Source: a bacterium (GTDB lineage: Bacteria; Desulfobacterota; Binatia; HRBIN30; CADEER01). Taken from it: a DNA stretch of 64,000 nucleotides. Both the position numbers and the translations under genes were made by a program. Under the pieces are notes generated by a model that saw only the letters and a program-made list of their open reading frames with translations, was not told where the DNA came from and ran no database searches. The stretch spans positions 114,330-178,329 of the forward strand of contig JAHBUY010000006.1 in assembly GCA_019637795.1 (NCBI GenBank). The letters run 5' to 3'. This document shows positions 975 to 14,018 of this stretch, one piece after another (the first letter of the stretch is position 1; every line of letters begins with the position of its first letter).

Positions 975-2801
975 TCAGCGGTCCAGCAGCTCGAGCTTCT
1001 CGCGCTCCCTGAACTCGTCGCGCAGCGCCGCGTAGTCGGCGGCGGTGAACGGTCTGAACGCGGTATCGCCGCGCTGCCGCCAATAGACCGGCTCGTTCGC
1101 CGGCAGGCGGCTCAGGTCGAAGTGCGTCTTCTTGTAGTTGCGCACCAGCACCTTCTGCGTCTGCGTGAACTCGAAGTCGCCGACCACGCGGACGAAGTCG
1201 GGGAACCACTTGCGGTCCATGCTGGCGCCGTTCACCTGCGCCTCGCACCAGTCGAAGAAGCCCTTGGGATCGAAGCGGGCGCCGTCGCGCAGCTTGATCG
1301 TCGCCATCACCAGCTCGTCCGACACCGAGCACGGCACGCCGTAGGCGACGGCGAGCTGCACGTCCGGGTGCTCGGAGAGGATGCGGCCGACCTGACCGGC
1401 GGAGAAGTTCTCGCCGTCCTTGCGGATCCAGTCGTCGGTGCGGCCGTCGAAGAAGAGGAAGCGGCGGCCGTCGACGACCAGGATGTGGCCGAGGTCGCCC
1501 GAGTGGTAGACGCCGTCGCGGAACTTCTCGCTGTTGGCCTTGGGATTGTCGAAGTAGCCCTGGAAGAGACCGGTGTCGGCGGCGACGCGGCAGATCTCGC
1601 CGACGCACTGCTCGTAATTCAGCAGCTTGCCGTCGGCGCCGAGCTCGGCCGGCGGGCACTCCGCGCCGTCCGGACCGAGGATCTTCACCGCGGCGTCCAG
1701 CACCTCGCCGACGCTGCCGCGCGGATCGCCCTTGCGGCGGAAGGTGCTGATCGCCGCCTCGGTCGAGCCGTAGAGCTCGAACATGTCCTCGAGCCCCATC
1801 CACTCCATGAACCGATCGATGTCCGGCGGCGCGGCGCCGTTGCCGACCGCGTAGCGGAAGTGGTTCTTCGGGTTGTCGGTGATCTCCGCCTTGATGCGCG
1901 CCTCGTCGCCGCCGTACTGCTTCTCGATCGCCGCCAGGACGTAGTGCACCGGCTCGCCGACGTAGTTCCAGAAGGTGACGCCGTAGCGGAGGACGTCGGG
2001 CACGAACTGGCTGGCGCTGAAGCGCTCGCGCAGCGCCATGCCGCCACCCACCCAGAAGGCCGGCATGAAGCCGACGAACATGGCGTTGGAGTGGAACAGC
2101 GGCATGCAGGCGTAGCCGATGTCGTCGGCGCCGAGCCCGAGGTTGGCGCTGACGCCGAAGCCGGTGGCGCACAGTTTGGTGTGGTTGTTGTTGATCCCCT
2201 TCGGCAGGCCGGTGGTGCCCGACGTGTAGATCACCATCAGGTTGGTGTCGCTGGTCACCGTCACCGGCGGCGCCTCGAGCGACCGCCCGGCGGGCGCGAC
2301 CTCGCGCTCGACGCAGGCGACGAGGTCGGCCGCGGGGTCGACGTCGCCGGCCCCGGTCTTGAGGATGAGCACGTTTTCCGGCGCGAGATGGGTGAGGTCG
2401 CGCCGGATGCGCTCGACCTCGGGCCAGAAGCGCTCGTCCACCACCAGCAGGCGGGCGCGCGACTGGTTCAGCACCCCGGTCAGCACCTCGCCGCGCAGCC
2501 CGGTGTTGACGCCGAACAGCGTCAGGCCGCCGAAGGCGCAGCCGCCGTACAGCGCCAGCAGCTCGAGGTGGTTCTCCAGCACCATCGCCACGTGGCCGGG
2601 CCGCCGCTCATCGATGGAGCCGAGGCGGCGCAGGAGGAAGTGCGCCATGCGCACCGACTCGTCGCGGAATTGCGCGTATGTCCAGCGCCGGTCGCCCTGC
2701 ATGAGCACCGTCTTCTTCGACGCCTCCGGGTGGACGGCGCGCGCCTCGATCTGCTCGCCAACGGTAAAGCCTGCCTCGAATGCCAGCGGTGGTGCTGCCA
2801 C
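975..2801 (-). CDS. AMP-dependent acyl-CoA synthetase/ligase (long-chain fatty acid-CoA ligase-like)
   Basis: YTSGTTGLPKG AMP-binding motif and overall ANL-superfamily layout; 608 aa ORF from the track. Confidence 0.85.
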   Translation of the reverse strand: MAAPPLAFEAGFTVGEQIEARAVHPEASKKTVLMQGDRRWTYAQFRDESVRMAHFLLRRLGSIDERRPGHVAMVLENHLELLALYGGCAFGGLTLFGVNTGLRGEVLTGVLNQSRARLLVVDERFWPEVERIRRDLTHLAPENVLILKTGAGDVDPAADLVACVEREVAPAGRSLEAPPVTVTSDTNLMVIYTSGTTGLPKGINNNHTKLCATGFGVSANLGLGADDIGYACMPLFHSNAMFVGFMPAFWVGGGMALRERFSASQFVPDVLRYGVTFWNYVGEPVHYVLAAIEKQYGGDEARIKAEITDNPKNHFRYAVGNGAAPPDIDRFMEWMGLEDMFELYGSTEAAISTFRRKGDPRGSVGEVLDAAVKILGPDGAECPPAELGADGKLLNYEQCVGEICRVAADTGLFQGYFDNPKANSEKFRDGVYHSGDLGHILVVDGRRFLFFDGRTDDWIRKDGENFSAGQVGRILSEHPDVQLAVAYGVPCSVSDELVMATIKLRDGARFDPKGFFDWCEAQVNGASMDRKWFPDFVRVVGDFEFTQTQKVLVRNYKKTHFDLSRLPANEPVYWRQRGDTAFRPFTAADYAALRDEFREREKLELLDR

Positions 2802-2927
2802 TGTGGGGTGCCTCCTCGACCTGTGTGGGGAATACGAGGGTCGGCTTAGCAGCGGCGGCGGCGCGTGTGAAGCGCGACGCGCCGGCGCGCTTGCCCGCCG
2901 CCAGGGCGCCGCCTATGAGTCCGCACC

Positions 2928-3599
2928 ATGCCCAGTCCGTGGATCGACGCCGAGTTTCACGCCGAGGTGACGCTCGCGCTCGGCTATCGCTACCGGCTGT
3001 CGCTGCCGGAGGGCGAGCCCGCGGCCGGCGGGCGCTGGCCGCTGCTGGTCTTCCTGCACGGCTCGGGCGAGCGCGGCGACGATCTCGACGTCGTGGCGCG
3101 CAACGGCCCGCCGAAGCTGATCGCCGAGGGCCGCCGCTTCCCCGCCATCGTCGCCAGCCCGCAGGCGCCCGAGCACGCGGCGTGGGACCCGCACGCCGTG
3201 CAGGCGCTGGTCGACGCGCTGCGCCGCCGCCATCCGGTCGACGACGATCGCGTCTATCTCACCGGTCTCAGCATGGGCGGCTACGCGGTGTGGGACACGC
3301 TCGCCGCCTACCCCGACACCTTCGCGGCCGCGGTGCCGATCTGCGGCGGCATCGGCGCCGCGATCGTCGCCGCCGAGCGCTTCGCGCACGTGCCGGTGTG
3401 GATCTTCCACGGCGCCGACGACCCGATCGTCCCGGTCGAGAACGCGCAGCGCATCCACGACGCGCTGCTGGCCGCCGGCGGCGCGCCGGCGATGACGATC
3501 TACCCAGGCGTCGGCCACGACTCCTGGGTGCGCGCCTACGACGATCCGGCCCTGTGGGCCTGGCTCTTCGCCCAGCGCCGCGCCGCCGCGCTCCGCTGA
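2928..3599 (+). CDS. alpha/beta-hydrolase, phospholipase/carboxylesterase family
   Basis: LVFLHGSGERGDD and the GLSMGG nucleophile elbow; a conserved His near the C-terminus. Confidence 0.8.
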   Translation: MPSPWIDAEFHAEVTLALGYRYRLSLPEGEPAAGGRWPLLVFLHGSGERGDDLDVVARNGPPKLIAEGRRFPAIVASPQAPEHAAWDPHAVQALVDALRRRHPVDDDRVYLTGLSMGGYAVWDTLAAYPDTFAAAVPICGGIGAAIVAAERFAHVPVWIFHGADDPIVPVENAQRIHDALLAAGGAPAMTIYPGVGHDSWVRAYDDPALWAWLFAQRRAAALR

Positions 3600-3631
3600 G
3601 GGCCTGCGGCCGCTCGCCGCGCGACGGGCGG

Positions 3632-6577
3632 CTACCCCGCCGCCCCGACGACGCACACCCCCGCGGCGCACTGGCCGTTCTGCTCGCCGACCCGGCAGTC
3701 GAGGCCCTCGGCGCCGGGTTCGCTGCGGCAGGTGCCGCCGCGGTCGCGGTAGTCGTAGGTGCACGGATTGCCGTCGTTGCAGGTGTTCGGCACGCATCCG
3801 GGCGAGCCCTGGATGCAGAAGGCCGACAGCGGCGTGTCGCGCCGGGCTTCGCGGTCGGCATCCGCGCCCTCGTTGAACGCGCCGGTGCCGGCGCCGACGA
3901 ACATCTGGCCGCCGACGATGGTGGCGCCGGCGGCGACGCCGCTCGGCACCGGGGCGGCGAGCACGGACTTGAGCAGCGAGCCGCCCTGGCGATCGAACAC
4001 GTTGATGTTGGGGCGCGGCGTGCCGCCGCACAGCGCCAGCCCGGGCACGCCCATGCACGGCGCGTACGACGTGTCGGCGCTCGAGTCCTGCCAGCGGACG
4101 CTGCCGTCGCTGAGGTTCAGCGCGTGCACCGACGGCTTCTGCGGCCGGCTGATGCTGAAGCCGAAGCCGGTGCTGAACACCGCGATGCCCTCGCCCACCG
4201 AGGCCGAGCCGATGATGCCGCCGATCGGCCCGCCGGGAACGACGTTGGTCGCCCAGTATGGCTCGACGACGCCGCTGATCTGGTTCACGCCGCCGCGGTC
4301 GAGCGCGTAGTAGGTGCCGTCCTTGCCGCCGACGCCGACCAGGTCGCGCACCGCGCCGCCGATCTCCGCCTCGAAGAGATTCGGCACGGCGCCGAAGTCG
4401 AGATCGTCGGGATCCACCTCGCGGGGCCGCCAGCTCCAGGCCAGGTCGCCGTCGAGGGTCAGCGCGATGATCGCCTCCTCGAGCGGCGGCGTCACCGGCG
4501 GCTGCGGCGTGTTGGGATCGTCGTCGACGTCGCAGTTGCTCGATACCGTGTAGAGCTGGCGCCGCCGCATGTCGACCGCCATCGACGACCAGATGTTGCC
4601 GCAGCCGATGCTGGTGCGGTCGAAGTCGCAGCCCGGCCGGCTCTCCAGGAATCCCTCCGGCAGGCCGAGCGCCTCGGCGCTGTGGAAGCCGTCGAAGCGG
4701 CGGATGTTGTCCTCGGCGAAGGGCCGGCAGGTGGCGGTGGTGACGACGTCGAACCACCAGGCGAGGCGGCCGTCGTCGGCGCGCAACGCGAAGATGGCGC
4801 CCTTGCCGGGAACGCCGTCATTGGTGTCCATGCCGAGCAGCACCAGGCCGTCGACCACCGCCGGCGTCGATTCGATCTGGTTGCGCTCCTCGCGCGTCGT
4901 GCAGGTGGTGCAGCCGGTGCCGGCGTCGAACTGCCAGAGCTCGGCGCCGGTGGTGGCGTCGAGGCAGTAGAGCGTCTCGCCGCCCGGGACGTAGACGCGC
5001 TGCTGGCCGTCGATCCAGGCCACCGTCGGCGAGCCGGCGTACGGATAGTAGGTGCCCGGCTGCGGCTTCATGAGATAGCGCCACGCCAGGCTGCCGTTCT
5101 CGGCGCGCAGCGCGTACACGTAGCGATCCCACGAGGGGACGATGACGATCTGCGTCCGGCCCTCGCCCGGCAGGTCCACCCAGGTGACCGCGGCCTGGGC
5201 GCTGATCATGCCGCCGGTCATGTAGCGCCACTTGTTGACCAACTGCGGCGCCGTGCCGGCATTGAGCGCCCGTTCGCGCGGATTGAAGTAGGTGCGGCGG
5301 ATGCTGCCGCCGAGGGTGAGCCACTCGTCGGCGCGCGACGGCAGCACGGCCAGGCCGTCGGGGAAGCTGATGCCGCGTCGCATCAGCTCCGGCTCGGACG
5401 GCCGGCCGGCGTCGTCGAAGGTGACGCGGCGCAGCGTGCCGGCGCCGGCGACGTCCTCGTTCTGCTCGTTCAGCCCGAGGTCGGCGTAGTAGAGCGTGCC
5501 CTGCGAGTCGAAGGCCATGCCGGCCGGGTTGCCCCAATCGCCCGGCGGCAGCACCTCGCGGAGGAAGGTGCCGTCGGCGGCGTGCTCGCGGATGCCGGCG
5601 TCCCGCCCGGCGAGGCCGACCACCTGCGAGACGAAGAAGTGGCCATCGCGACCGCGCGCCACGCCGAGGGATGCGACCGCGTCGCTGTAGGCGATGAACG
5701 GCGTCTTCACTGGCACCACCGTGTCGCACTCGTCGGCGTTGGCGGGGAACGGCGCCGCATAGCGCTGCACCCGACCCGGCGGCCCCGCCTCGGCGACGTA
5801 GAGGTTGCCGTCGTCGTCGCTGGTCATCAGACCGGGCGTCCGCAGGCCGCCGTCGAGCGTGCAACTGGTGGTGTAGTCCGGGGGGAAGAACACGACGAGA
5901 TGGCCGTCGGCGCCGCCCTGGGAGCCGATGGCGCTGCCGAACAGCCGCCCGTCGGCGTCGACCACGCAGCCGATCGGATCGGGGTTGGTGGTCTCGTTGT
6001 CGAACGCCGGAAGGGGAATCTTCTGCAGGAAGGTGCCGTCGGCCGAGAAGATCGCCCACCCCGGACGGACCGCCGGCTGGCCGGTGTCCTCGCCGCCGAC
6101 GTAGCTGCCGGCGCCGCCCGGCAGCAGGCAGATCTGGCCGTTGATGTTGGCGTGGGTGTTGGGGACGGTCGTCGTCACCGCCCCGCTCGCCAGATCGTAC
6201 TCGTCGAGCTGGTTGTTCTGCGGGCTGAACAGCACCTCGCCGGCGGGGCCGCCGCCGCAGCCGGACAGCGCCTTGGTGACTCCGCGCACCAGCTCGTTGA
6301 TCCCCACCACGCCGTCGCGATTGTTGTCGATGGCGTCGCAGACCCCGATGGCGTCGCCGCCGAGGGCGATGGTGACCGCCCGCACCAGCTCGTCGATCGT
6401 GACGCGCCGATCGTCGTTGCAGTCGCCGACGCACGCGCTGCCCGCGCGCGGCAGGAGGACGGGCGCGACCAGCGCGCAGATGGCAATCCAGCGACGGACC
6501 CTCGAACGCATTGCGACCCCCGTGGCGAAGCGTGTTGCGCTGGACGCACTCTGCCCGCTCGGGCGAAGAGTTGCCAA
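3632..6577 (-). CDS. large secreted multidomain protein: signal peptide, Cys-bracketed dockerin-like double repeat, PQQ-like beta-propeller repeats, C-terminal Myxococcus-type Cys-rich repeat
   Basis: N-terminus CVGDCNDDRRVTIDELVRAVTIALG...CDAIDNNRDGVVGINELVRGVTKALSGC. Repeated ...DG.LAW(R/W)(F/Y) PQQ/BamB-like blades. C-terminus CNDGNPCTYD...C. The true start may be the downstream ATG at 6511 (MRSRVRRWIAICALVAPVLLP signal peptide). Confidence 0.75.
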   Translation of the reverse strand: MATLRPSGQSASSATRFATGVAMRSRVRRWIAICALVAPVLLPRAGSACVGDCNDDRRVTIDELVRAVTIALGGDAIGVCDAIDNNRDGVVGINELVRGVTKALSGCGGGPAGEVLFSPQNNQLDEYDLASGAVTTTVPNTHANINGQICLLPGGAGSYVGGEDTGQPAVRPGWAIFSADGTFLQKIPLPAFDNETTNPDPIGCVVDADGRLFGSAIGSQGGADGHLVVFFPPDYTTSCTLDGGLRTPGLMTSDDDGNLYVAEAGPPGRVQRYAAPFPANADECDTVVPVKTPFIAYSDAVASLGVARGRDGHFFVSQVVGLAGRDAGIREHAADGTFLREVLPPGDWGNPAGMAFDSQGTLYYADLGLNEQNEDVAGAGTLRRVTFDDAGRPSEPELMRRGISFPDGLAVLPSRADEWLTLGGSIRRTYFNPRERALNAGTAPQLVNKWRYMTGGMISAQAAVTWVDLPGEGRTQIVIVPSWDRYVYALRAENGSLAWRYLMKPQPGTYYPYAGSPTVAWIDGQQRVYVPGGETLYCLDATTGAELWQFDAGTGCTTCTTREERNQIESTPAVVDGLVLLGMDTNDGVPGKGAIFALRADDGRLAWWFDVVTTATCRPFAEDNIRRFDGFHSAEALGLPEGFLESRPGCDFDRTSIGCGNIWSSMAVDMRRRQLYTVSSNCDVDDDPNTPQPPVTPPLEEAIIALTLDGDLAWSWRPREVDPDDLDFGAVPNLFEAEIGGAVRDLVGVGGKDGTYYALDRGGVNQISGVVEPYWATNVVPGGPIGGIIGSASVGEGIAVFSTGFGFSISRPQKPSVHALNLSDGSVRWQDSSADTSYAPCMGVPGLALCGGTPRPNINVFDRQGGSLLKSVLAAPVPSGVAAGATIVGGQMFVGAGTGAFNEGADADREARRDTPLSAFCIQGSPGCVPNTCNDGNPCTYDYRDRGGTCRSEPGAEGLDCRVGEQNGQCAAGVCVVGAAG

Positions 6578-6610
6578 CCCTGGCGCCCGCGCGGGCGACG
6601 CCAGGCGGGA

Positions 6611-8626
6611 CTAGTCGACCGGCACCGACTCCGCCTCCGCCAGCCAGAGCGCCGGCGAGGCGTCGGACGGCATGCGCCAGTCGCCGCGCGGCGAGAGGCT
6701 GCCGCCGGAGCCGACCTTGGGGCCGTCGGGCAGCGCCTCGCGCTTGAACTGGTTGGCGAAGAAGCGCTGCACGAAGACCAGCAGCCAGCGGCGGATGGTC
6801 GCCAGGTCGTAGCGCCCGTCGAAGGCATGCAGCGCCAGGCGCGCCAGGCGGCGCGGCCCGGCGCCGAAGCGGAGCACGTGGTAGAGGAAGAAGTCGTGCA
6901 GCTCGTAGGGACCGACGACGTCCTCCGACACCTGCACGATCTCGCCGTCGCGCGGCCGCAGCAGCTCGGGGCTGATCGGCGTCGCCAGCACGTCGCGCAG
7001 CACCGCCTGCACCGCGGCGTCGCCGGCGAAGATGACGTCGGCGGCCCAGGCGATCAGGTAGCTGATCAGCGACTTCGGCACGCCGGCGTTGACGCCGTAG
7101 TGCGACAGATGATCGCCGCCGTAGGTGCACCAGCCGAGCGCGATCTCCGAGAGATCGCCGGTGCCGAGATTGATGCCGCGCTGCTGCGAGGCGGTGGCGA
7201 ACAGGAGCAGCGTGCGCAGCCAGGCCTGCACGTTCTCGAACGTCAGGTCCTCCCGCTCCGGCGGATGGCCGATGGCGGCGTAGACCGCCTCGCCGATGCC
7301 GGTGATCGGGATCTCCTGGAAGCTGGCGTGCAGCGCCCGCGCCAGGCGCTCGGCGTTGCCGCGGGTGCGGGCGGTGGTGCCGAAGCCCGGCATGGTGATC
7401 GCCAGCAGCCGGCCGCGCTCCAGGTGGAGCAGATCGAGGGCGTGCGCGGCGACCAGCAGCGCGTGCGTCGAATCCTGGCCGCCCGAGACGCCGATGACGA
7501 TGCGGCGCGCCGCCGGCGGCAGCGCGTGCAGCCGGCGGGCGAGCGCGCTCGCCTGGATCAGGAAGACCTCGCGGCAGCGGACGTCGCGCTCCGCCGCGTC
7601 GGCGGGGACGAACGGCCGGGCGTCGACGCGGCGCTCGAAGCGCTCCCAGGTGGCGCGCGGGCGCGCGTCCGCCGCCGGCCCGCAGTCGACGATGCGCACG
7701 GCGCGCCCGTGATCGCGCGCGTTGGCGCCGAACGACGTCTGCCGCATGCGATCCTGGAGGAGCGCCTGCAGGTCGACGTCGACCTCGACGTGCGTGCCGC
7801 CGAGCATGAACCGGTGCGTCTCGGCGATCAGCCGCCCGCGCTCGGCCACCATGCCGTGGCCGTCCCACGCCAGGTCGGAGGTCGACTCGCCGAAGCCGGC
7901 GGCGGAGTACATTTGCACCGCGAGATTGCGGGCCGACGAGTTGCGCACCAGCTCCTGGCGATACTCCCACTTGCCGACGGTGATGTTCGAGGCCGAGAGA
8001 TTGGCGAGCACGGTGGCGCCGGCCAGCGCCGCCAGCGTGCTCGGCGGCACCGGCACCCAGAGATCCTCGCAGACGTCGGTGTGCAGCACGAACCCCGGCA
8101 GGTGGGGCAGTCGGATGAGCACGTCGGTGCCGAACGGCACGTCGCCGCCGAGCAGCGACAACTCGCGCACCGCCGTCTCGGCGGCGGGCCGGAACCAGCG
8201 CAGCTCGTAGAACTCGCGGTAGCTCGGCGGGTACGATTTCGGCGCCACCGCCAGGACGCGGCCGCGGTAGAGGGTGACGGCGCAGTTGAAGAGCAGCCCC
8301 TCGATCGCCAGCGGCGCGCCGACCGTGAACAGCAGGTTCCAGTCGGCGCTGGCGTGGGCCAGCTCCGCGAGGGCGGCACGCACCCCGGCGAGCAGCGACT
8401 CCTGGAAGAACAGGTCGCCGCAGGTATAGGCGCTGAGGCCGAGCTCGGGGCAGAGCGCGTAATGGGCGCCGGCGCGGTGCACCGTCTCGAGCTGCTCGAG
8501 GTGCGCGGCGGCGTTGAAGGCGGGGTCGGCGACCCGCACCGGCGGCACGCAGACGGCGACCCGGGCGAAGCCGTGGGTGCGCACGTCGAGAAAGTCGCGA
8601 TCGGGACTGCCGGGCGGCCGCGCCAT
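6611..8626 (-). CDS. nadE: glutamine-dependent NAD+ synthetase (N-terminal CN-hydrolase domain plus NAD synthase domain)
   Basis: GVSGGQDS PP-loop motif and a nitrilase-like N-terminal half; 671 aa. Confidence 0.9.
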   Translation of the reverse strand: MARPPGSPDRDFLDVRTHGFARVAVCVPPVRVADPAFNAAAHLEQLETVHRAGAHYALCPELGLSAYTCGDLFFQESLLAGVRAALAELAHASADWNLLFTVGAPLAIEGLLFNCAVTLYRGRVLAVAPKSYPPSYREFYELRWFRPAAETAVRELSLLGGDVPFGTDVLIRLPHLPGFVLHTDVCEDLWVPVPPSTLAALAGATVLANLSASNITVGKWEYRQELVRNSSARNLAVQMYSAAGFGESTSDLAWDGHGMVAERGRLIAETHRFMLGGTHVEVDVDLQALLQDRMRQTSFGANARDHGRAVRIVDCGPAADARPRATWERFERRVDARPFVPADAAERDVRCREVFLIQASALARRLHALPPAARRIVIGVSGGQDSTHALLVAAHALDLLHLERGRLLAITMPGFGTTARTRGNAERLARALHASFQEIPITGIGEAVYAAIGHPPEREDLTFENVQAWLRTLLLFATASQQRGINLGTGDLSEIALGWCTYGGDHLSHYGVNAGVPKSLISYLIAWAADVIFAGDAAVQAVLRDVLATPISPELLRPRDGEIVQVSEDVVGPYELHDFFLYHVLRFGAGPRRLARLALHAFDGRYDLATIRRWLLVFVQRFFANQFKREALPDGPKVGSGGSLSPRGDWRMPSDASPALWLAEAESVPVD

Positions 8627-8724
8627 CGCCGGGAGTCTACACGAATCGAAGGGAAATGCCCCTGCATCCCCTTCACAAAGGCCGGCAAAGCTAGTAGGCG
8701 CCTGGATTTCACCGTCTACGCCTC

Positions 8725-8955
8725 ATGGGATCCGTCATCGAATTCGGCATGCCCCGCCGACGGCGGCGCGCCGCGGCGCGCCCCGCCGCCGGCCCGAGCG
8801 TCGTCCACTGCGGGCACTGCGGCGAACCGCACCCCATCGTCCGCCTGCAGGGTGGCGAGCAGCGCTGCGTGACCGCCTTCTTCGACGGCAGCCACTGGTT
8901 CTGCCGCAACCGCGGCTGCCGGCGCGCCTGGCTGGAACGCAGCGGCGAGATCTGA
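8725..8955 (+). CDS. small hypothetical protein with a Cys4 zinc-ribbon-like pattern
   Basis: CGHCGEP...C...FCRNRGC in 76 aa; lies in the divergent intergenic region upstream of nadE. Weak support. Confidence 0.3.
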   Translation: MGSVIEFGMPRRRRRAAARPAAGPSVVHCGHCGEPHPIVRLQGGEQRCVTAFFDGSHWFCRNRGCRRAWLERSGEI

Positions 8956-10488: not shown

Positions 10489-10533
10489 GGCCTCGTGCTG
10501 ACGGACGAGCCCGTCACCCGTCAGCACGAGGCC
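10489..10533. terminator. GC-rich hairpin between convergent genes (candidate bidirectional terminator)
   Basis: GGCCTCGTGCTGACGG (10489-10504), a 13-nt loop, then CCGTCAGCACGAGGCC (10518-10533). Perfect 16-bp stem, no U-tract. Confidence 0.45.
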
Positions 10534-10540
10534 CGATTGC

Positions 10541-13500
10541 TCAGTCGCACCGCAGGGTCGATCCCAACGCGGCACAGGCCGGCGCGGGCGCGCCGCCGGG
10601 ATTGAACGTCGCGCTGCCGCACTGGCCGGCGGCGCCCTGCGGCTGGCTGCCGAGGACCACCACCAGCTCGAGGTTCTCGCTGGCGACGCGGAAGTCGTTG
10701 CCCTTGCCGCGGACGGTGAACTGGAAGAGACCCGGCGTCCGGCTGCTGCGGTCCTTGAGCATGACCTTGCTGACGCCGCCGGCGAGCCCGCCGTCGCGAT
10801 CGGAGAACTTCCAGGCGGAGCCGCCGCGCGCCCACCCCGGGGTCGAGGCGCCCGGCGGCACGAAGCGGGTCAGCAGCGGCTGACCGGTGCCGCGGTCGCG
10901 CACCTGCAGGCTGAAGCCGTTGACCGATGGATCGATTGCCGGCAGCAGCGACGGTAGCCGCAGCTCGCCCTTGAGGAAGAGCTTCTCGTCGCCGGCGGGC
11001 AGCGCGTTGCGGGCGATCTTCAGCTTCACGTTCGCGAGCGCCACGCCGCCGCTGCAGACGAGCTGCGGGCCCACGGTCGGCGTCGGCGTGGCCGTCGGCG
11101 CCACGGTCGTGGGCGTGGCGGTCGGCGCCAGCGCGGTGGGCGTGCCGGTGGCGGTCGACGCCGGCGTGCTGGTGATGGTCGCGGTCGCCGTGCCGGTCGG
11201 CGTGCCGGTCGCCGTGCGGGTGAACGTCATCGTCGCCGTCGGCGGCACCGCGGTGGGCGTGAAGGTCGGCGTCGCCGTGCCCTCCGGCAGACTCAGCGGA
11301 TCGGCCGGATCGGAGCCGGCGTCGAGCTCGTCGCGGTCGAAGCGGTTGTCGAGGTCGCGGTCGATGCCGATGCGCTGCCCGGAGCCCGGCGGCACGCAGG
11401 TGTACACCTGCTCCTGGCCGGCGCTGCCGGCCAGCGCGCGCAGGGCCGTCTTGTCGATCAGTGGCTCGCTGACGCGGTCGCTGCGGAAGCTGTTGCCGCC
11501 GGCGTACACCCAGCCGCGCGCCTCGCCGCCGCTGACGCCCTTCACCACCAGATCGCAATCGCCGGCGTCGTCGCGGCCGATCAGGAGATCGATGCGGGCG
11601 ATGACGGTCGAATCGGCGACGCTGCTCGGGGTCACCGACACCTGCTGCCCGACCGCCGGCTTCAGGCCGGTGTCGAAGGCGAGGATGAACGCCTCCAGGT
11701 TGCGCCGCTTGGTGTTGGCGTTGCTCCCGAAGGTGAAGACGCCCGCCTGGAGGAAGTTGAACACGGTCGGCACGCTGCCGTCGTGCAGGAAGCCGAAGCC
11801 GCGCACCTGATTGCCGGCGCTGCCGAACATGCCGACCTTCTGGTAGGCGTTGCGCAGGTGGGCGATCTTGAACTCCTGCGGCTCGCCTTCGAACGACGAG
11901 AAGCCGTCGGTGCCGAACGGCAGCGCGTGACAGAGCGCGCAGGTGAGCACGCCGGCGTCGACGACCTGATCGGTGAAGAAGCTCGCGCCGGCGCTCTCCG
12001 CGACCGTCGCGACGTCGGTCAGCGCCCGCACCGGATTCGGCGGATAGCGGACGCTGAGGATGAAGTCGGTGAACTCCTGCATCTCGCTCGCCGTCAGCTC
12101 GCTGTCGCGGCCGAGCAGGCCCACGAAGGCGGGATTGAACTCCTTGAAGGCGAGATCCTCGTTGAGCGGATCGCCGCCGTTGGTGCCGCCGGTGCGATCG
12201 CCGCGCCAGTGCATCGGACCGGCGTCGGCCATGCCGCGCAGGCTCTGCGTCGTCATCGGCCCCTTCATGGGATGGAACGGCCCGCCGCTGCCGATGCGGA
12301 AGGGATTGGGATTGGCGACGATGGCGCCGAAGGGATCGCCGAGATCCCACGCCAGGCTGTCGAAATCGCCGAAGATGTGACAACTGGCGCAGGCGCTGTC
12401 GCCGTGCCCCGAGGTGTCGTGGGCGTCGTAGAGGAAGCGCCGGCCGAGCTTCGCGGCCGGCGGCGACGGGTCGAAGCGCAGCGGCACGACGGCGGTCTGG
12501 GCGCGCGCCGCGTTGCTCGCGTCGCTCACCACCGAGATCGTGTGATCGATGCGGTTCATGACGTAGAGGCGGTCGCGGGCGGCGTCGAGCACGACACCGC
12601 TCGGCCCGTTCCCCACCGCCACCTGCTGTTCGCTGACCGTGCCGGCCTCGAGCGCGTTGGTGTCGATGGCGGCGACCTTGCCCGACCCGAAGGCGGCGAC
12701 GAACAGGGTGAGGCCGTTGGGCGCGAACACCATGTCGGTCGGGAAGGCGAGGCTCTGGTCGCGCTCCGCCTGCGAGCCGGTGGCGACGGCGTAGTCGACG
12801 TGCGGGTTCAGGTGCCGCGCCGTCGGCGTGGTGCCGTTGATGATGGTGATGCGGCTCTCCGCGATGTGCCCCTGGACGCCGCCGGCGGCCAGCGGTTCGA
12901 AGCGGACGTGGTTCCGCGATTCGAGGTTGCTGACGTAGATCTTCCCGTTGTCGGGGCGCACCGCCATGTTGAAGAGAATCGTGCCGACGCCGACGACGGT
13001 GTTGTTGCTCGCCAGCAGCGCCGGCGGATTGGCGGTGGCGTTGATGATGAAGACGTCGCGGTCGGGGAGCGTGAACGGCACCCGCGCCGTCCAGTCGCGG
13101 CTGATCTCGTCCTCCCAGCGGCTGTTCGCGGGGTTGAACTTGACGATCAGGCCGGTGTCGGGCGGGTTCGCGGTCGCGCCCGGCGGCGGCGGCGGCAGGC
13201 CGCCGTTGTTGGTCACCACGCCCTCGCTGAGCGCGGTGGTGCGGTTGCCGGACTGGAAGGCGGCGGCGTAGACGCGGGTGCCGTCGGGCGACACCGCCAG
13301 CGCGCGCGGGGTGTCGCTGAGGCACTGGATGACGGACAGTGGCGTGCCACCGAGCGCCGCGCCGGGCGCGTTGGCGTCGAAGGCCCAGACCAGCGCCCGC
13401 GCCGTGCCGGCGGTGGTCAGGTTCGCCGGCACCGTGCCGGGCAGGTTCTGGCCGCGGCGCGCGGTGGTGACGAAGGCGCGGTTGAATCCCGCGCCGGCGA

Positions 13501-13903
13501 AGACGATGTCGCGCGGCTCGTCGCCGACCAGCAGGGTGCGGGTCACCCGGCTCCGGGTCACGTCGCCGGGATCGACCTCGACGATGCTGACGCTGTCCGA
13601 GAGATGGTTCACCACCCACGCCTCGACCCGGCCGCCGGCGTTCACCCGGCTCGCCACGGCGACCGGCTCCAGGCCCACCGCCACCTCGGCGGCGAGCGTC
13701 AGGCCACCCGCATCGACGTCGTAGATCTCCAGCCGGTTGTCGGGCGTGTTGACGGCGAACAGGCGGTTGCCGTCGGGCGACAGCGCCAGGGGCCGGACAT
13801 GCCCGCTCTCGAAGTTCACGAACGAGCCCTGTGCCAATGCCGGCCAGGGCGCCAGCAACACCATGGCGACGGCAAGACGTCCCCCGAACGACAACACGCG
13901 CAT
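10541..13903 (-). CDS. secreted YVTN-type beta-propeller fused to a di-heme cytochrome c peroxidase-like domain, a Thr/Pro-rich linker and a C-terminal domain
   Basis: Signal peptide MRVLSFGGRLAVAMVLLAPWPALAQG. Two CxxCH sites (ACASCH, CALCH) and a CCP-type F-x4-LRN motif (FKIAHLRN). The TP linker is ~69 aa. Confidence 0.8.
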   Translation of the reverse strand: MRVLSFGGRLAVAMVLLAPWPALAQGSFVNFESGHVRPLALSPDGNRLFAVNTPDNRLEIYDVDAGGLTLAAEVAVGLEPVAVASRVNAGGRVEAWVVNHLSDSVSIVEVDPGDVTRSRVTRTLLVGDEPRDIVFAGAGFNRAFVTTARRGQNLPGTVPANLTTAGTARALVWAFDANAPGAALGGTPLSVIQCLSDTPRALAVSPDGTRVYAAAFQSGNRTTALSEGVVTNNGGLPPPPPGATANPPDTGLIVKFNPANSRWEDEISRDWTARVPFTLPDRDVFIINATANPPALLASNNTVVGVGTILFNMAVRPDNGKIYVSNLESRNHVRFEPLAAGGVQGHIAESRITIINGTTPTARHLNPHVDYAVATGSQAERDQSLAFPTDMVFAPNGLTLFVAAFGSGKVAAIDTNALEAGTVSEQQVAVGNGPSGVVLDAARDRLYVMNRIDHTISVVSDASNAARAQTAVVPLRFDPSPPAAKLGRRFLYDAHDTSGHGDSACASCHIFGDFDSLAWDLGDPFGAIVANPNPFRIGSGGPFHPMKGPMTTQSLRGMADAGPMHWRGDRTGGTNGGDPLNEDLAFKEFNPAFVGLLGRDSELTASEMQEFTDFILSVRYPPNPVRALTDVATVAESAGASFFTDQVVDAGVLTCALCHALPFGTDGFSSFEGEPQEFKIAHLRNAYQKVGMFGSAGNQVRGFGFLHDGSVPTVFNFLQAGVFTFGSNANTKRRNLEAFILAFDTGLKPAVGQQVSVTPSSVADSTVIARIDLLIGRDDAGDCDLVVKGVSGGEARGWVYAGGNSFRSDRVSEPLIDKTALRALAGSAGQEQVYTCVPPGSGQRIGIDRDLDNRFDRDELDAGSDPADPLSLPEGTATPTFTPTAVPPTATMTFTRTATGTPTGTATATITSTPASTATGTPTALAPTATPTTVAPTATPTPTVGPQLVCSGGVALANVKLKIARNALPAGDEKLFLKGELRLPSLLPAIDPSVNGFSLQVRDRGTGQPLLTRFVPPGASTPGWARGGSAWKFSDRDGGLAGGVSKVMLKDRSSRTPGLFQFTVRGKGNDFRVASENLELVVVLGSQPQGAAGQCGSATFNPGGAPAPACAALGSTLRCD
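11072..11280. repeat. low-complexity Thr/Pro/Ala-rich linker-coding repeat inside the 10541..13903 CDS
   Basis: Translation TPTFTPTAVPPTATMTFTRTATGTPTGTATATITSTPASTATGTPTALAPTATPTTVAPTATPTPTV. Confidence 0.7.
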
Positions 13904-14018
13904 GCCCCGTACCCCCGACGACCGTGCCTATCCCGCAGCCTCGGCCGAGACAACCCAAATGTTGCCAAGCGGCCGCCGGCGCGATCCGGACGGTCGCCGC
14001 GGGCGGCGTCCGAGGGCC

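Follow-up and report, generated by a model that had tools for sequence, protein, structure and literature searches.

A stretch of 64,000 nucleotides from a bacterium of the Binatia (assembly GCA_019637795.1, contig JAHBUY010000006.1, positions 114,330 to 178,329 of the forward strand; the whole stretch is called the window here) carries at positions 10541–13903 a real gene for an exported protein of 1120 amino acids (aa), in which a beta-propeller and a two-heme, peroxidase-like domain are fused. The assignment of this product as an exported multidomain c-type cytochrome, in both identity and architecture, is made with high confidence. From end to end, the product has the same sequence as the NCBI entry 'hypothetical protein KF840_20460 [bacterium]' (100% identity), and it is matched by more than 7,800 database proteins. 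The reading frame is considered real because it has thousands of homologues, matches propeller models above their thresholds and yields a confident AlphaFold2 model, with a mean predicted local distance difference test score (pLDDT) of 85.6 and a predicted template modelling score (pTM) of 0.77.

The di-heme domain that follows the propeller is a divergent member of the cytochrome c peroxidase (CCP)/MauG superfamily, and both halves of the protein, in the order propeller then di-heme, are structurally closest among solved structures to two subunits, beta and gamma, of hydrazine synthase (HZS). The description that fits the protein best is a variant of the CCP/MauG superfamily that resembles HZS-beta-gamma and stands alone, and the protein is one ordinary member of a family that is very large, unnamed, uncharacterised and mis-annotated. 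A preliminary description had proposed a four-part architecture, secretion and a CCP/MauG-type di-heme module, and these are borne out by domain models, the AlphaFold2 model, profile searches and the relatives. As an observation that description is confirmed, while its interpretation is partly supported. The word 'giant' used there is an overstatement for 1120 aa, the list of four parts omitted the alpha/beta domain at aa 745–843 and the acidic motif at aa 844–873, and the kinship with HZS beta and gamma was missed. The features are collected in Table 1.

Domain layout and family-wide variation

The leader of the protein has pLDDT values <50 in the AlphaFold2 model (aa 1–25), and a signal-like leader is found in all homologues inspected, ending just ahead of a conserved F-x-x-F-E-S-G. 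Signal peptide cleavage is predicted after A-L-A and before QG. The propeller exceeds the cut-offs of both PF10282 (Lactonase; 35.1 bits vs 21.7) and TIGR02276 (YVTN repeats; 49.8 vs 27.85), and in the model it has seven or eight sheets. A profile built from 120 homologues, used to search PDB sequences, matched 1l0q at 4e-18 and HZS-beta (5c2v_B) at 7e-6. The top PDB match found by Foldseek for the whole-protein model was also 5c2v_B (E 5e-18, template modelling score 0.74 on the target), which ranked above an archaeal YVTN S-layer propeller and generic WD40 proteins. The seven-blade YVTN-type fold is shared with the periplasmic propellers of YncE and the lactonases; those proteins, however, are without a heme domain. 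The NCBIfam YncE equivalog scored 18.4 bits against a cut-off of 400, with only aa 388–459 aligned, and the names 'YncE' and 'lactonase' therefore cover the propeller fold only, which is the N-terminal 40% of the protein.

Downstream of the di-heme domain, the alpha/beta domain is modelled very confidently, and its Cys783/Cys836 pair is kept in 70 of 83 relatives. Here and below, conservation was read from alignments of 120, 83 and 39 relatives, the 83 being sequences from diverse genomes. The acidic motif, with the pattern DRDxDxxxDRDExDxGxDPADP, resembles bacterial TSP3 calcium-binding repeats and probably binds calcium; conservation is 97% or higher at R844, D848, R849, D850, D852 and D856. 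The TSP3_bac model is below threshold in the 1120-aa protein (13.5 bits) and matches 14 of the 39 relatives.

The Thr/Pro linker reported in the preliminary description is present, with 73 aa instead of ~69, and contains 30 Thr, 13 Ala and 13 Pro residues. It is disordered in the AlphaFold2 model (pLDDT 26–37, and <50 across aa 878–943), and the DNA that encodes it is built of imperfect 12/24/27-nt repeats. The Cys-containing C-terminal domain of the same description is also found, at 174 aa and not 176. It is an all-beta sandwich with pLDDT values of 92–97, containing Cys950, Cys1095, Cys1110 and Cys1119. No Pfam family matches it, and two database searches yielded nothing but short, fragment-like proteins, 2 with the module as a single sequence and 9 with a profile of 7 sequences. 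Two proteins consist almost solely of the query-type four-Cys sandwich, P0270 (160 aa, on a 15.7-kb contig) and P0312 (284 aa, on a 19.7-kb contig), and these may represent the module in free-standing form, or else genes whose calls were broken at the repetitive linker.

Table 1. Features of the 1120-aa protein and of the adjoining intergenic region, in window coordinates
Feature	Residues (aa)	Window positions	Strand	Basis or remarks
Complete gene, 1120 codons and stop	1–1120	10541–13903	-	Open reading frame list; identical deposited protein; AlphaFold2 model
Predicted Sec-type signal peptide, MRVLSFGGRLAVAMVLLAPWPALA, then QG	1–24	13832–13903	-	Basic n-region, hydrophobic core, A-L-A
YVTN/lactonase-type beta-propeller	28–475	12479–13822	-	PF10282, TIGR02276, PDB profile, Foldseek
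Di-heme cytochrome c domain, CCP/MauG superfamily, HZS-gamma-like	482–740	11684–12460	-	
Heme-binding motif 1, CASCH	505–509	12377–12391	-	
Trp566 in MHWRGD	566	12206–12208	-	Presumed inter-heme tryptophan
Heme-binding motif 2, CALCH	655–659	11927–11941	-	
FKIAHLRN	678–685	11849–11872	-	LHDG downstream at aa 706–709
Conserved alpha/beta domain	745–843	11375–11671	-	Cys783/Cys836 pair
TSP3-like acidic motif, RIGIDRDLDNRFDRDELDAGSDPADPLSLP	844–873	11285–11374	-	End of conserved core
Disordered Thr/Pro/Ala-rich linker	874–946	11066–11284	-	
C-terminal four-Cys beta-sandwich (174 aa)	947–1120	10544–11065	-	
Hairpin, perfect 16-bp stem, 13-nt loop		10489–10533	.	Between the convergent OmpA-like gene and the target

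The family is large. The central domain alone gives 3,094 clusters at 50% identity (822 at E ≤1e-30), and species-representative genomes contain at least 600 loci. The hosts include Binatia, many Myxococcota, Acidobacteriota, Thermoanaerobaculia and several Gammaproteobacteria, with Sorangium, Corallococcus, Myxococcus, Archangium, Polyangium and Hyalangium among the cultured myxobacteria. The propeller is conserved as well as the heme domain, at ~50% identity across phyla. Among the matches listed, those from species-representative genomes are 47–65% identical over aa 1–873 only. Myxobacterial homologues end 8 residues past DPADP, and the C-terminus beyond this motif is absent in myxobacteria and acidobacteria; the query-type linker and four-Cys sandwich are restricted to a subset of Binatia-type homologues. 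The linker and C-terminal domain are lineage-specific additions to a conserved core of ~870 aa.

Other members of the family carry a second type of sandwich, TSP3, dockerin-like or Cys-rich repeats, FlgD-Ig, Calx-beta or HYDIN-Ig modules, or hydrophobic tails ending in runs of Arg. The dockerin-like repeats have the form CDxDGxVTxxE. Markedly different ends were observed at loci L013, L079, L043, L049, L050 and others, and the tails that combine a hydrophobic segment with an Arg run are PEP-CTERM-like or membrane-anchor-like. This mix-and-match pattern at the C-terminus is typical of envelope-anchored or extracellular enzymes. Several genomes have two or more copies of the gene; loci L001 and L002 lie ~50 kb apart on one 2.64-Mb contig, and further paralogue pairs are L006/L016, L007/L031, L056/L076 and L064/L083. 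The multiple copies, some of them on one contig, suggest lineage-specific expansion, especially in Binatia. Within the window, no paralogue of the 1120-aa protein was found.

The di-heme module and its kinship with hydrazine synthase

The di-heme module is assigned to the CCP/MauG superfamily because of its PDB profile match, the structural comparison and the matches of its relatives to PF03150 (CCP_MauG), a model with a gathering cut-off of 25.6 bits. The 120-homologue profile reaches HZS-gamma (5c2v_C) at 5.4e-5, the match being split into three collinear segments, namely the first heme motif with a WDLGD stretch in common (C-A-S-C-H...W-D-L-G-D), the inter-lobe helix with the second CxxCH, and the HDG. 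Further PDB matches of the same profile are MbnH (0.17) and the Nitrosomonas CCP (0.31). The HDG of the 1120-aa protein has YFHDG as its aligned counterpart in HZS-gamma, and YMHDG in MbnH. By structure, the module has the CCP/MauG fold, and the comparison values across the superfamily are 11.4 for HZS-gamma, 10.1 for MbnH, 10.0 for YhjA, 9.9 for BccP, 9.2 for MauG, 8.8 for BthA and 7.9 for RoxA; Foldseek ranks these members in identical order, with HZS-gamma first and RoxA last. PF03150 is matched at E ≤0.01 by 20 of the 39 diverse relatives, with a lowest E-value of 2.6e-9.

The motifs named in the preliminary description could all be located, the CxxCH sites as CASCH 505 and CALCH 655, the presumed inter-heme tryptophan as Trp566 and F-x4-LRN as FKIAHLRN 678–685. 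The two CxxCH motifs are ~150 residues apart, as in the CCP/MauG superfamily. By motif position (FWDGR in CCPs), Trp566 is presumably the equivalent of Trp94 in CCP and Trp93 in MauG, an equivalence that rests partly on Hagglund et al. (2025; PMC12758564).

Conservation of the CxxCH sites, on which the preliminary description had hung its reading of the module, holds across the family, with C505, C508, H509 and the CALCH motif invariant in all three alignments. Trp566 and His565 are present in 83/83 sequences, as are K679 and Y687, and N685 (82/83), D708 (81/83) and R684 (80/83) are nearly so. Further invariant positions among the 83 are Y492, W519, K547, T552, R556, R567, D569 and R701. His707 of the HDG (72/83), His682 (71/83) and Met692 (76/83) are not strict. 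Conserved Cys pairs also occur outside the heme motifs in relatives. At the level of sequence, these alignments show strong purifying selection on the heme-binding sites and the polar residues that surround them.

The likeness to HZS beta-gamma (Kuenenia, PDB 5c2v) extends to the succession of a seven-blade-type YVTN propeller and a CCP-like di-heme domain, to the CxxCH...WDLGD stretch and to the HDG. In Scalindua, beta and gamma are fused as HZS-BC, and proteins with a beta-gamma-like fusion are reported to occur commonly outside the anammox bacteria, with Trp in place of gamma-His144 (Hagglund et al., 2025). Trp566 likewise occupies the position of HZS-gamma His144, where CCPs have Trp, so that the 1120-aa protein resembles the non-anammox homologues in this respect. 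The family is not obviously present in the hit tables of that paper, in which Binatia are represented by a single beta-gamma hit, a 659-aa protein distinct from this family and 30% identical to Scalindua HZS-BC.

There are, however, clear differences from HZS. Identity to HZS beta-gamma is only ~17%, and the core of ~870 aa compares with 690 aa in Scalindua HZS-BC (supplement of PMC12758564), the 1120-aa protein having an extra alpha/beta domain and the TSP3-like motif. The family hosts are mostly aerobic soil bacteria, unlike those of anammox HZS. The NCBIfam models give only weak, partial matches, with hydrazine_beta at 42.5 bits vs 560, hydrazine_BC at 31.6 vs 1250 and hydrazine_gamma at 12.3 vs 625. 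There is no Cys between the CxxCH motifs (aa 509 to 655), and a third covalent heme bond of the gamma-Cys165 type is therefore impossible. No HZS alpha-like gene was found nearby in the window, and none recurs across 85 loci of the family; nor is there any other conserved neighbour. An identity as hydrazine synthase was rejected on these grounds, with scores more than tenfold below the equivalog cut-offs, no gamma-Cys165, Trp for His144 and no alpha gene.

Possible chemistry and competing explanations

The most likely role of the 1120-aa protein is that of a redox enzyme of the periplasm or the cell surface, with heme 1 as the place where a small oxidant is used. The overall explanation favoured here is given about an even chance, and the oxidising mechanism within it is put forward more tentatively, at rather less than even. 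Once the protein has been exported by Sec, heme would be joined by the cytochrome c maturation system to C505/C508, with His509 as proximal ligand, and to C655/C658, with His659 as proximal ligand. Heme 1, in the N-terminal cytochrome lobe and adjoining the propeller, would react with a small oxidant, in all probability hydrogen peroxide (H2O2). To our knowledge, heme 1 is the reactive site in all characterised members of the superfamily. Heme 2, for which a low potential would be favoured, may act as the redox partner, coupled via the invariant Trp566, and the variable C-terminal modules would tether the enzyme to the envelope, matrix or a polymer.

MauG/BthA/MbnH-like oxidation of a substrate held at the propeller/heme interface would be preferred over cytochrome-c-fed peroxide scavenging, because the position of the CCP Met ligand past the HDG is empty. 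By sequence inspection, there is no Met, Tyr or His within aa 710–735 (SVPTVFNFLQAGVFTFGSNANTKRRN), which we take to be the stretch that holds the sixth heme-2 ligand, ~14 residues past the HDG (Met in CCP, Tyr in MauG/BthA). Invariant alternatives for this ligand are Y687, K679 and K689. The proposal of the preliminary description, that the propeller feeds a putative substrate to the di-heme centre for oxidative tailoring or detoxification, is plausible.

Several points weigh against the reading as an oxidising CCP/MauG-type enzyme. PF03150 stays below threshold in the 1120-aa protein, at 17.5 bits with the full protein and 21.2 bits with the domain alone, and its alignment covers only aa 483–510, 28 residues up to the first CxxCH. 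The CCP-family match that the preliminary description expected at aa 490–760 is upheld by profile, fold and relatives, but as far as this model is concerned it survives narrowly. Foldseek E-values for the di-heme domain are marginal (best 1.7e-3), and the loops round the hemes are modelled with low confidence (pLDDT 54–75). The structure models are heme-free, so that axial ligands, heme-propeller geometry and tunnels are not readable from them, and the argument from the missing Met relies on the ligand position known for CCP and MauG, as counted along the sequence. Public names for the family are limited to 'hypothetical', 'YncE family', 'beta-propeller fold lactonase family' and 'cytochrome c domain-containing'. 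In the literature, no characterised family member was found, the sole relevant paper being PMC12758564. An all-against-all comparison of the open reading frames (ORFs) flanking 85 loci gave no recurrent neighbour, and thus no hint of the oxidant, electron partner or substrate.

An ordinary peroxide-scavenging CCP, in which electrons from cytochrome c or a cupredoxin enter via heme 2, H2O2 is reduced at heme 1 and the propeller serves docking or stability only, is considered unlikely. Compared with bacterial di-heme CCPs (P. aeruginosa CCP, 1eb7; Shewanella BccP, 3o5c; E. coli YhjA, 9qdt), the protein is below the PF03150 gathering score, has no distal Met for heme 2 at the canonical position past the HDG, and is fused to a propeller and further domains. 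Moreover, the HDG is not strict (His707 in 72 of 83), and a propeller ~50% identical across phyla, like the heme domain itself, is hard to explain as a passive appendage. Several paralogues per genome and surface-anchoring modules would also be unusual for a detoxifying CCP. The protein could instead be a modifier of the MauG/MbnH type, in which a high-valent di-heme acts by hole hopping on a separate protein or on its own propeller, in the latter case for instance to give a Trp-derived cofactor or a metal site in cis, but this has a slim chance. The genes for MauG and MbnH adjoin those for their substrates, in the mau and mbn operons, whereas members of this family have no conserved neighbour and no substrate gene alongside. 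The propeller fusion is not known from MauG, MbnH and BthA, and there is no Tyr in the stretch equivalent to that of MauG Tyr294. RoxA, an extracellular di-heme rubber oxygenase (4b2n), is the weakest match of the superfamily and is without a propeller; the RoxA-like_Cyt-c model scored 12.5 bits against a cut-off of 26.7, which places the protein outside the RoxA type.

HZS-gamma-like nitrogen-oxide chemistry without an alpha subunit, by which nitric oxide (NO) would be converted to hydroxylamine, or hydroxylamine or hydrazine turned over, for detoxification or scavenging in aerobes, has a slimmer chance still. Among solved structures, the two halves match HZS-beta and HZS-gamma best by both profile and fold, and the order of propeller then di-heme is that of the fused beta-gamma of Scalindua (PMC12758564), the 1120-aa protein giving a weak match to hydrazine_BC. 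Scores far under the NCBIfam equivalog cut-offs, however, speak against such chemistry, as do the lack of a gamma-Cys165 equivalent between the CxxCH motifs, the Trp where HZS-gamma has His144, and the lack of an alpha-like gene nearby or recurrent. The least probable of the explanations considered, and a very improbable one, has the protein at the surface without catalytic activity, as a shuttle for electron transfer or as an adhesin, its hemes having no part beyond electron transfer or structure. The adhesin-like C-terminal modules across the family and the Thr/Pro linker, which is typical of surface proteins, would suit this role, but the invariance across phyla of many polar and charged residues around the two heme motifs, among them K547, T552, Q553, R556, H565, R567, D569, K679, Y687 and R701, goes beyond the needs of a simple carrier, and the fold is that of catalytic di-heme enzymes.

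A bolder proposal is that an HZS-gamma/MauG-like di-heme unit and its own propeller carry out chemistry new to the superfamily, and that the family is a widespread, hitherto unrecognised class of exported enzymes in soil bacteria. The chemistry would be either NO/hydroxylamine turnover outside anammox, or oxidative maturation in cis by which the propeller acquires a cofactor or metal site (self-processing). This is regarded as distinctly unlikely; if true in either version, the family would be the nearest free-living model of hydrazine synthase evolution.

The family of the favoured propeller/di-heme cytochrome is of interest for its size, its clusters numbering in the thousands and its species-level genomes at least 600, and for its ~50% identity across phyla. 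No Pfam model spans the 350-aa catalytic core, and the public labels 'YncE family' and 'lactonase' are misleading. Di-heme CCP/MauG enzymes have repeatedly turned out to have unexpected chemistry, as in MauG, MbnH, BthA, RoxA and HZS-gamma, and the propeller-fused branch, with cultivable hosts such as Myxococcus, Corallococcus and Sorangium, is therefore an accessible target. The family also supplies an outgroup for the origin of hydrazine synthase. The window copy itself contributes no new evidence on function.

Genomic context and intergenic hairpin

The genes around the target are of a housekeeping kind, namely NAD synthase, SIMPL, OmpA-like, acyltransferase, ArgC, a membrane protein and an M1 peptidase. 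The preliminary description had pointed to the SIMPL and OmpA-like neighbours, and both do adjoin the target (SIMPL, 172 bits; OmpA/glycine-zipper protein, 81 bits), but a functional link to them does not stand, since neighbourhoods differ and neither gene recurs in the 85 loci. An operon link was rejected because of the convergent orientation and because four close homologues lie in differing surroundings; even at a homologue with 82% identity the neighbourhood is not the same. Across the 85 loci, only the target gene itself and its antisense ORFs recur, and the next clusters are generic (ABC-F, enoyl-CoA hydratase, histidine kinases, non-ribosomal peptide synthetases) and lie at varying positions. 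With no conserved neighbour, the context is therefore uninformative on substrate or redox partner. Two Binatia orthologues, at loci L003 and L004, have in common an upstream SecA-ArgJ-Rce1-like block and a downstream GatCAB block. The window copy sits elsewhere, and the window protein may therefore be a paralogue and not a syntenic orthologue.

The 16-bp hairpin noted in the preliminary description is real. Its arms (10489–10504 and 10518–10533) are perfect and lie within the 57-bp gap between the convergent genes, with a folding energy of about −40 kcal/mol (−40.1/−42.5 kcal/mol, z −6.8/−5.7). There is no U-tract (T-run) on either strand, and a canonical intrinsic terminator was rejected for this reason. 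A repetitive extragenic palindrome (REP)-like repeat was likewise rejected, as the window holds no other copy at ≤2 mismatches beyond chance. The hairpin may be a U-tract-independent bidirectional terminator, of a kind common in high-GC genomes.

The GC content of the window is 72%, and many of its long ORFs are artefactual, such as a 783-aa antisense ORF. A 1145-aa ORF at 10521–13958, in a different frame from the target, was rejected as a high-GC artefact. A 2030-aa Arg/Ala/Gly-rich ORF on the plus strand (2780–8872) overlaps the true NAD synthase gene on the opposite strand (6611–8626, minus) and is an artefact of the same kind; comparable shadow ORFs occur throughout the window.

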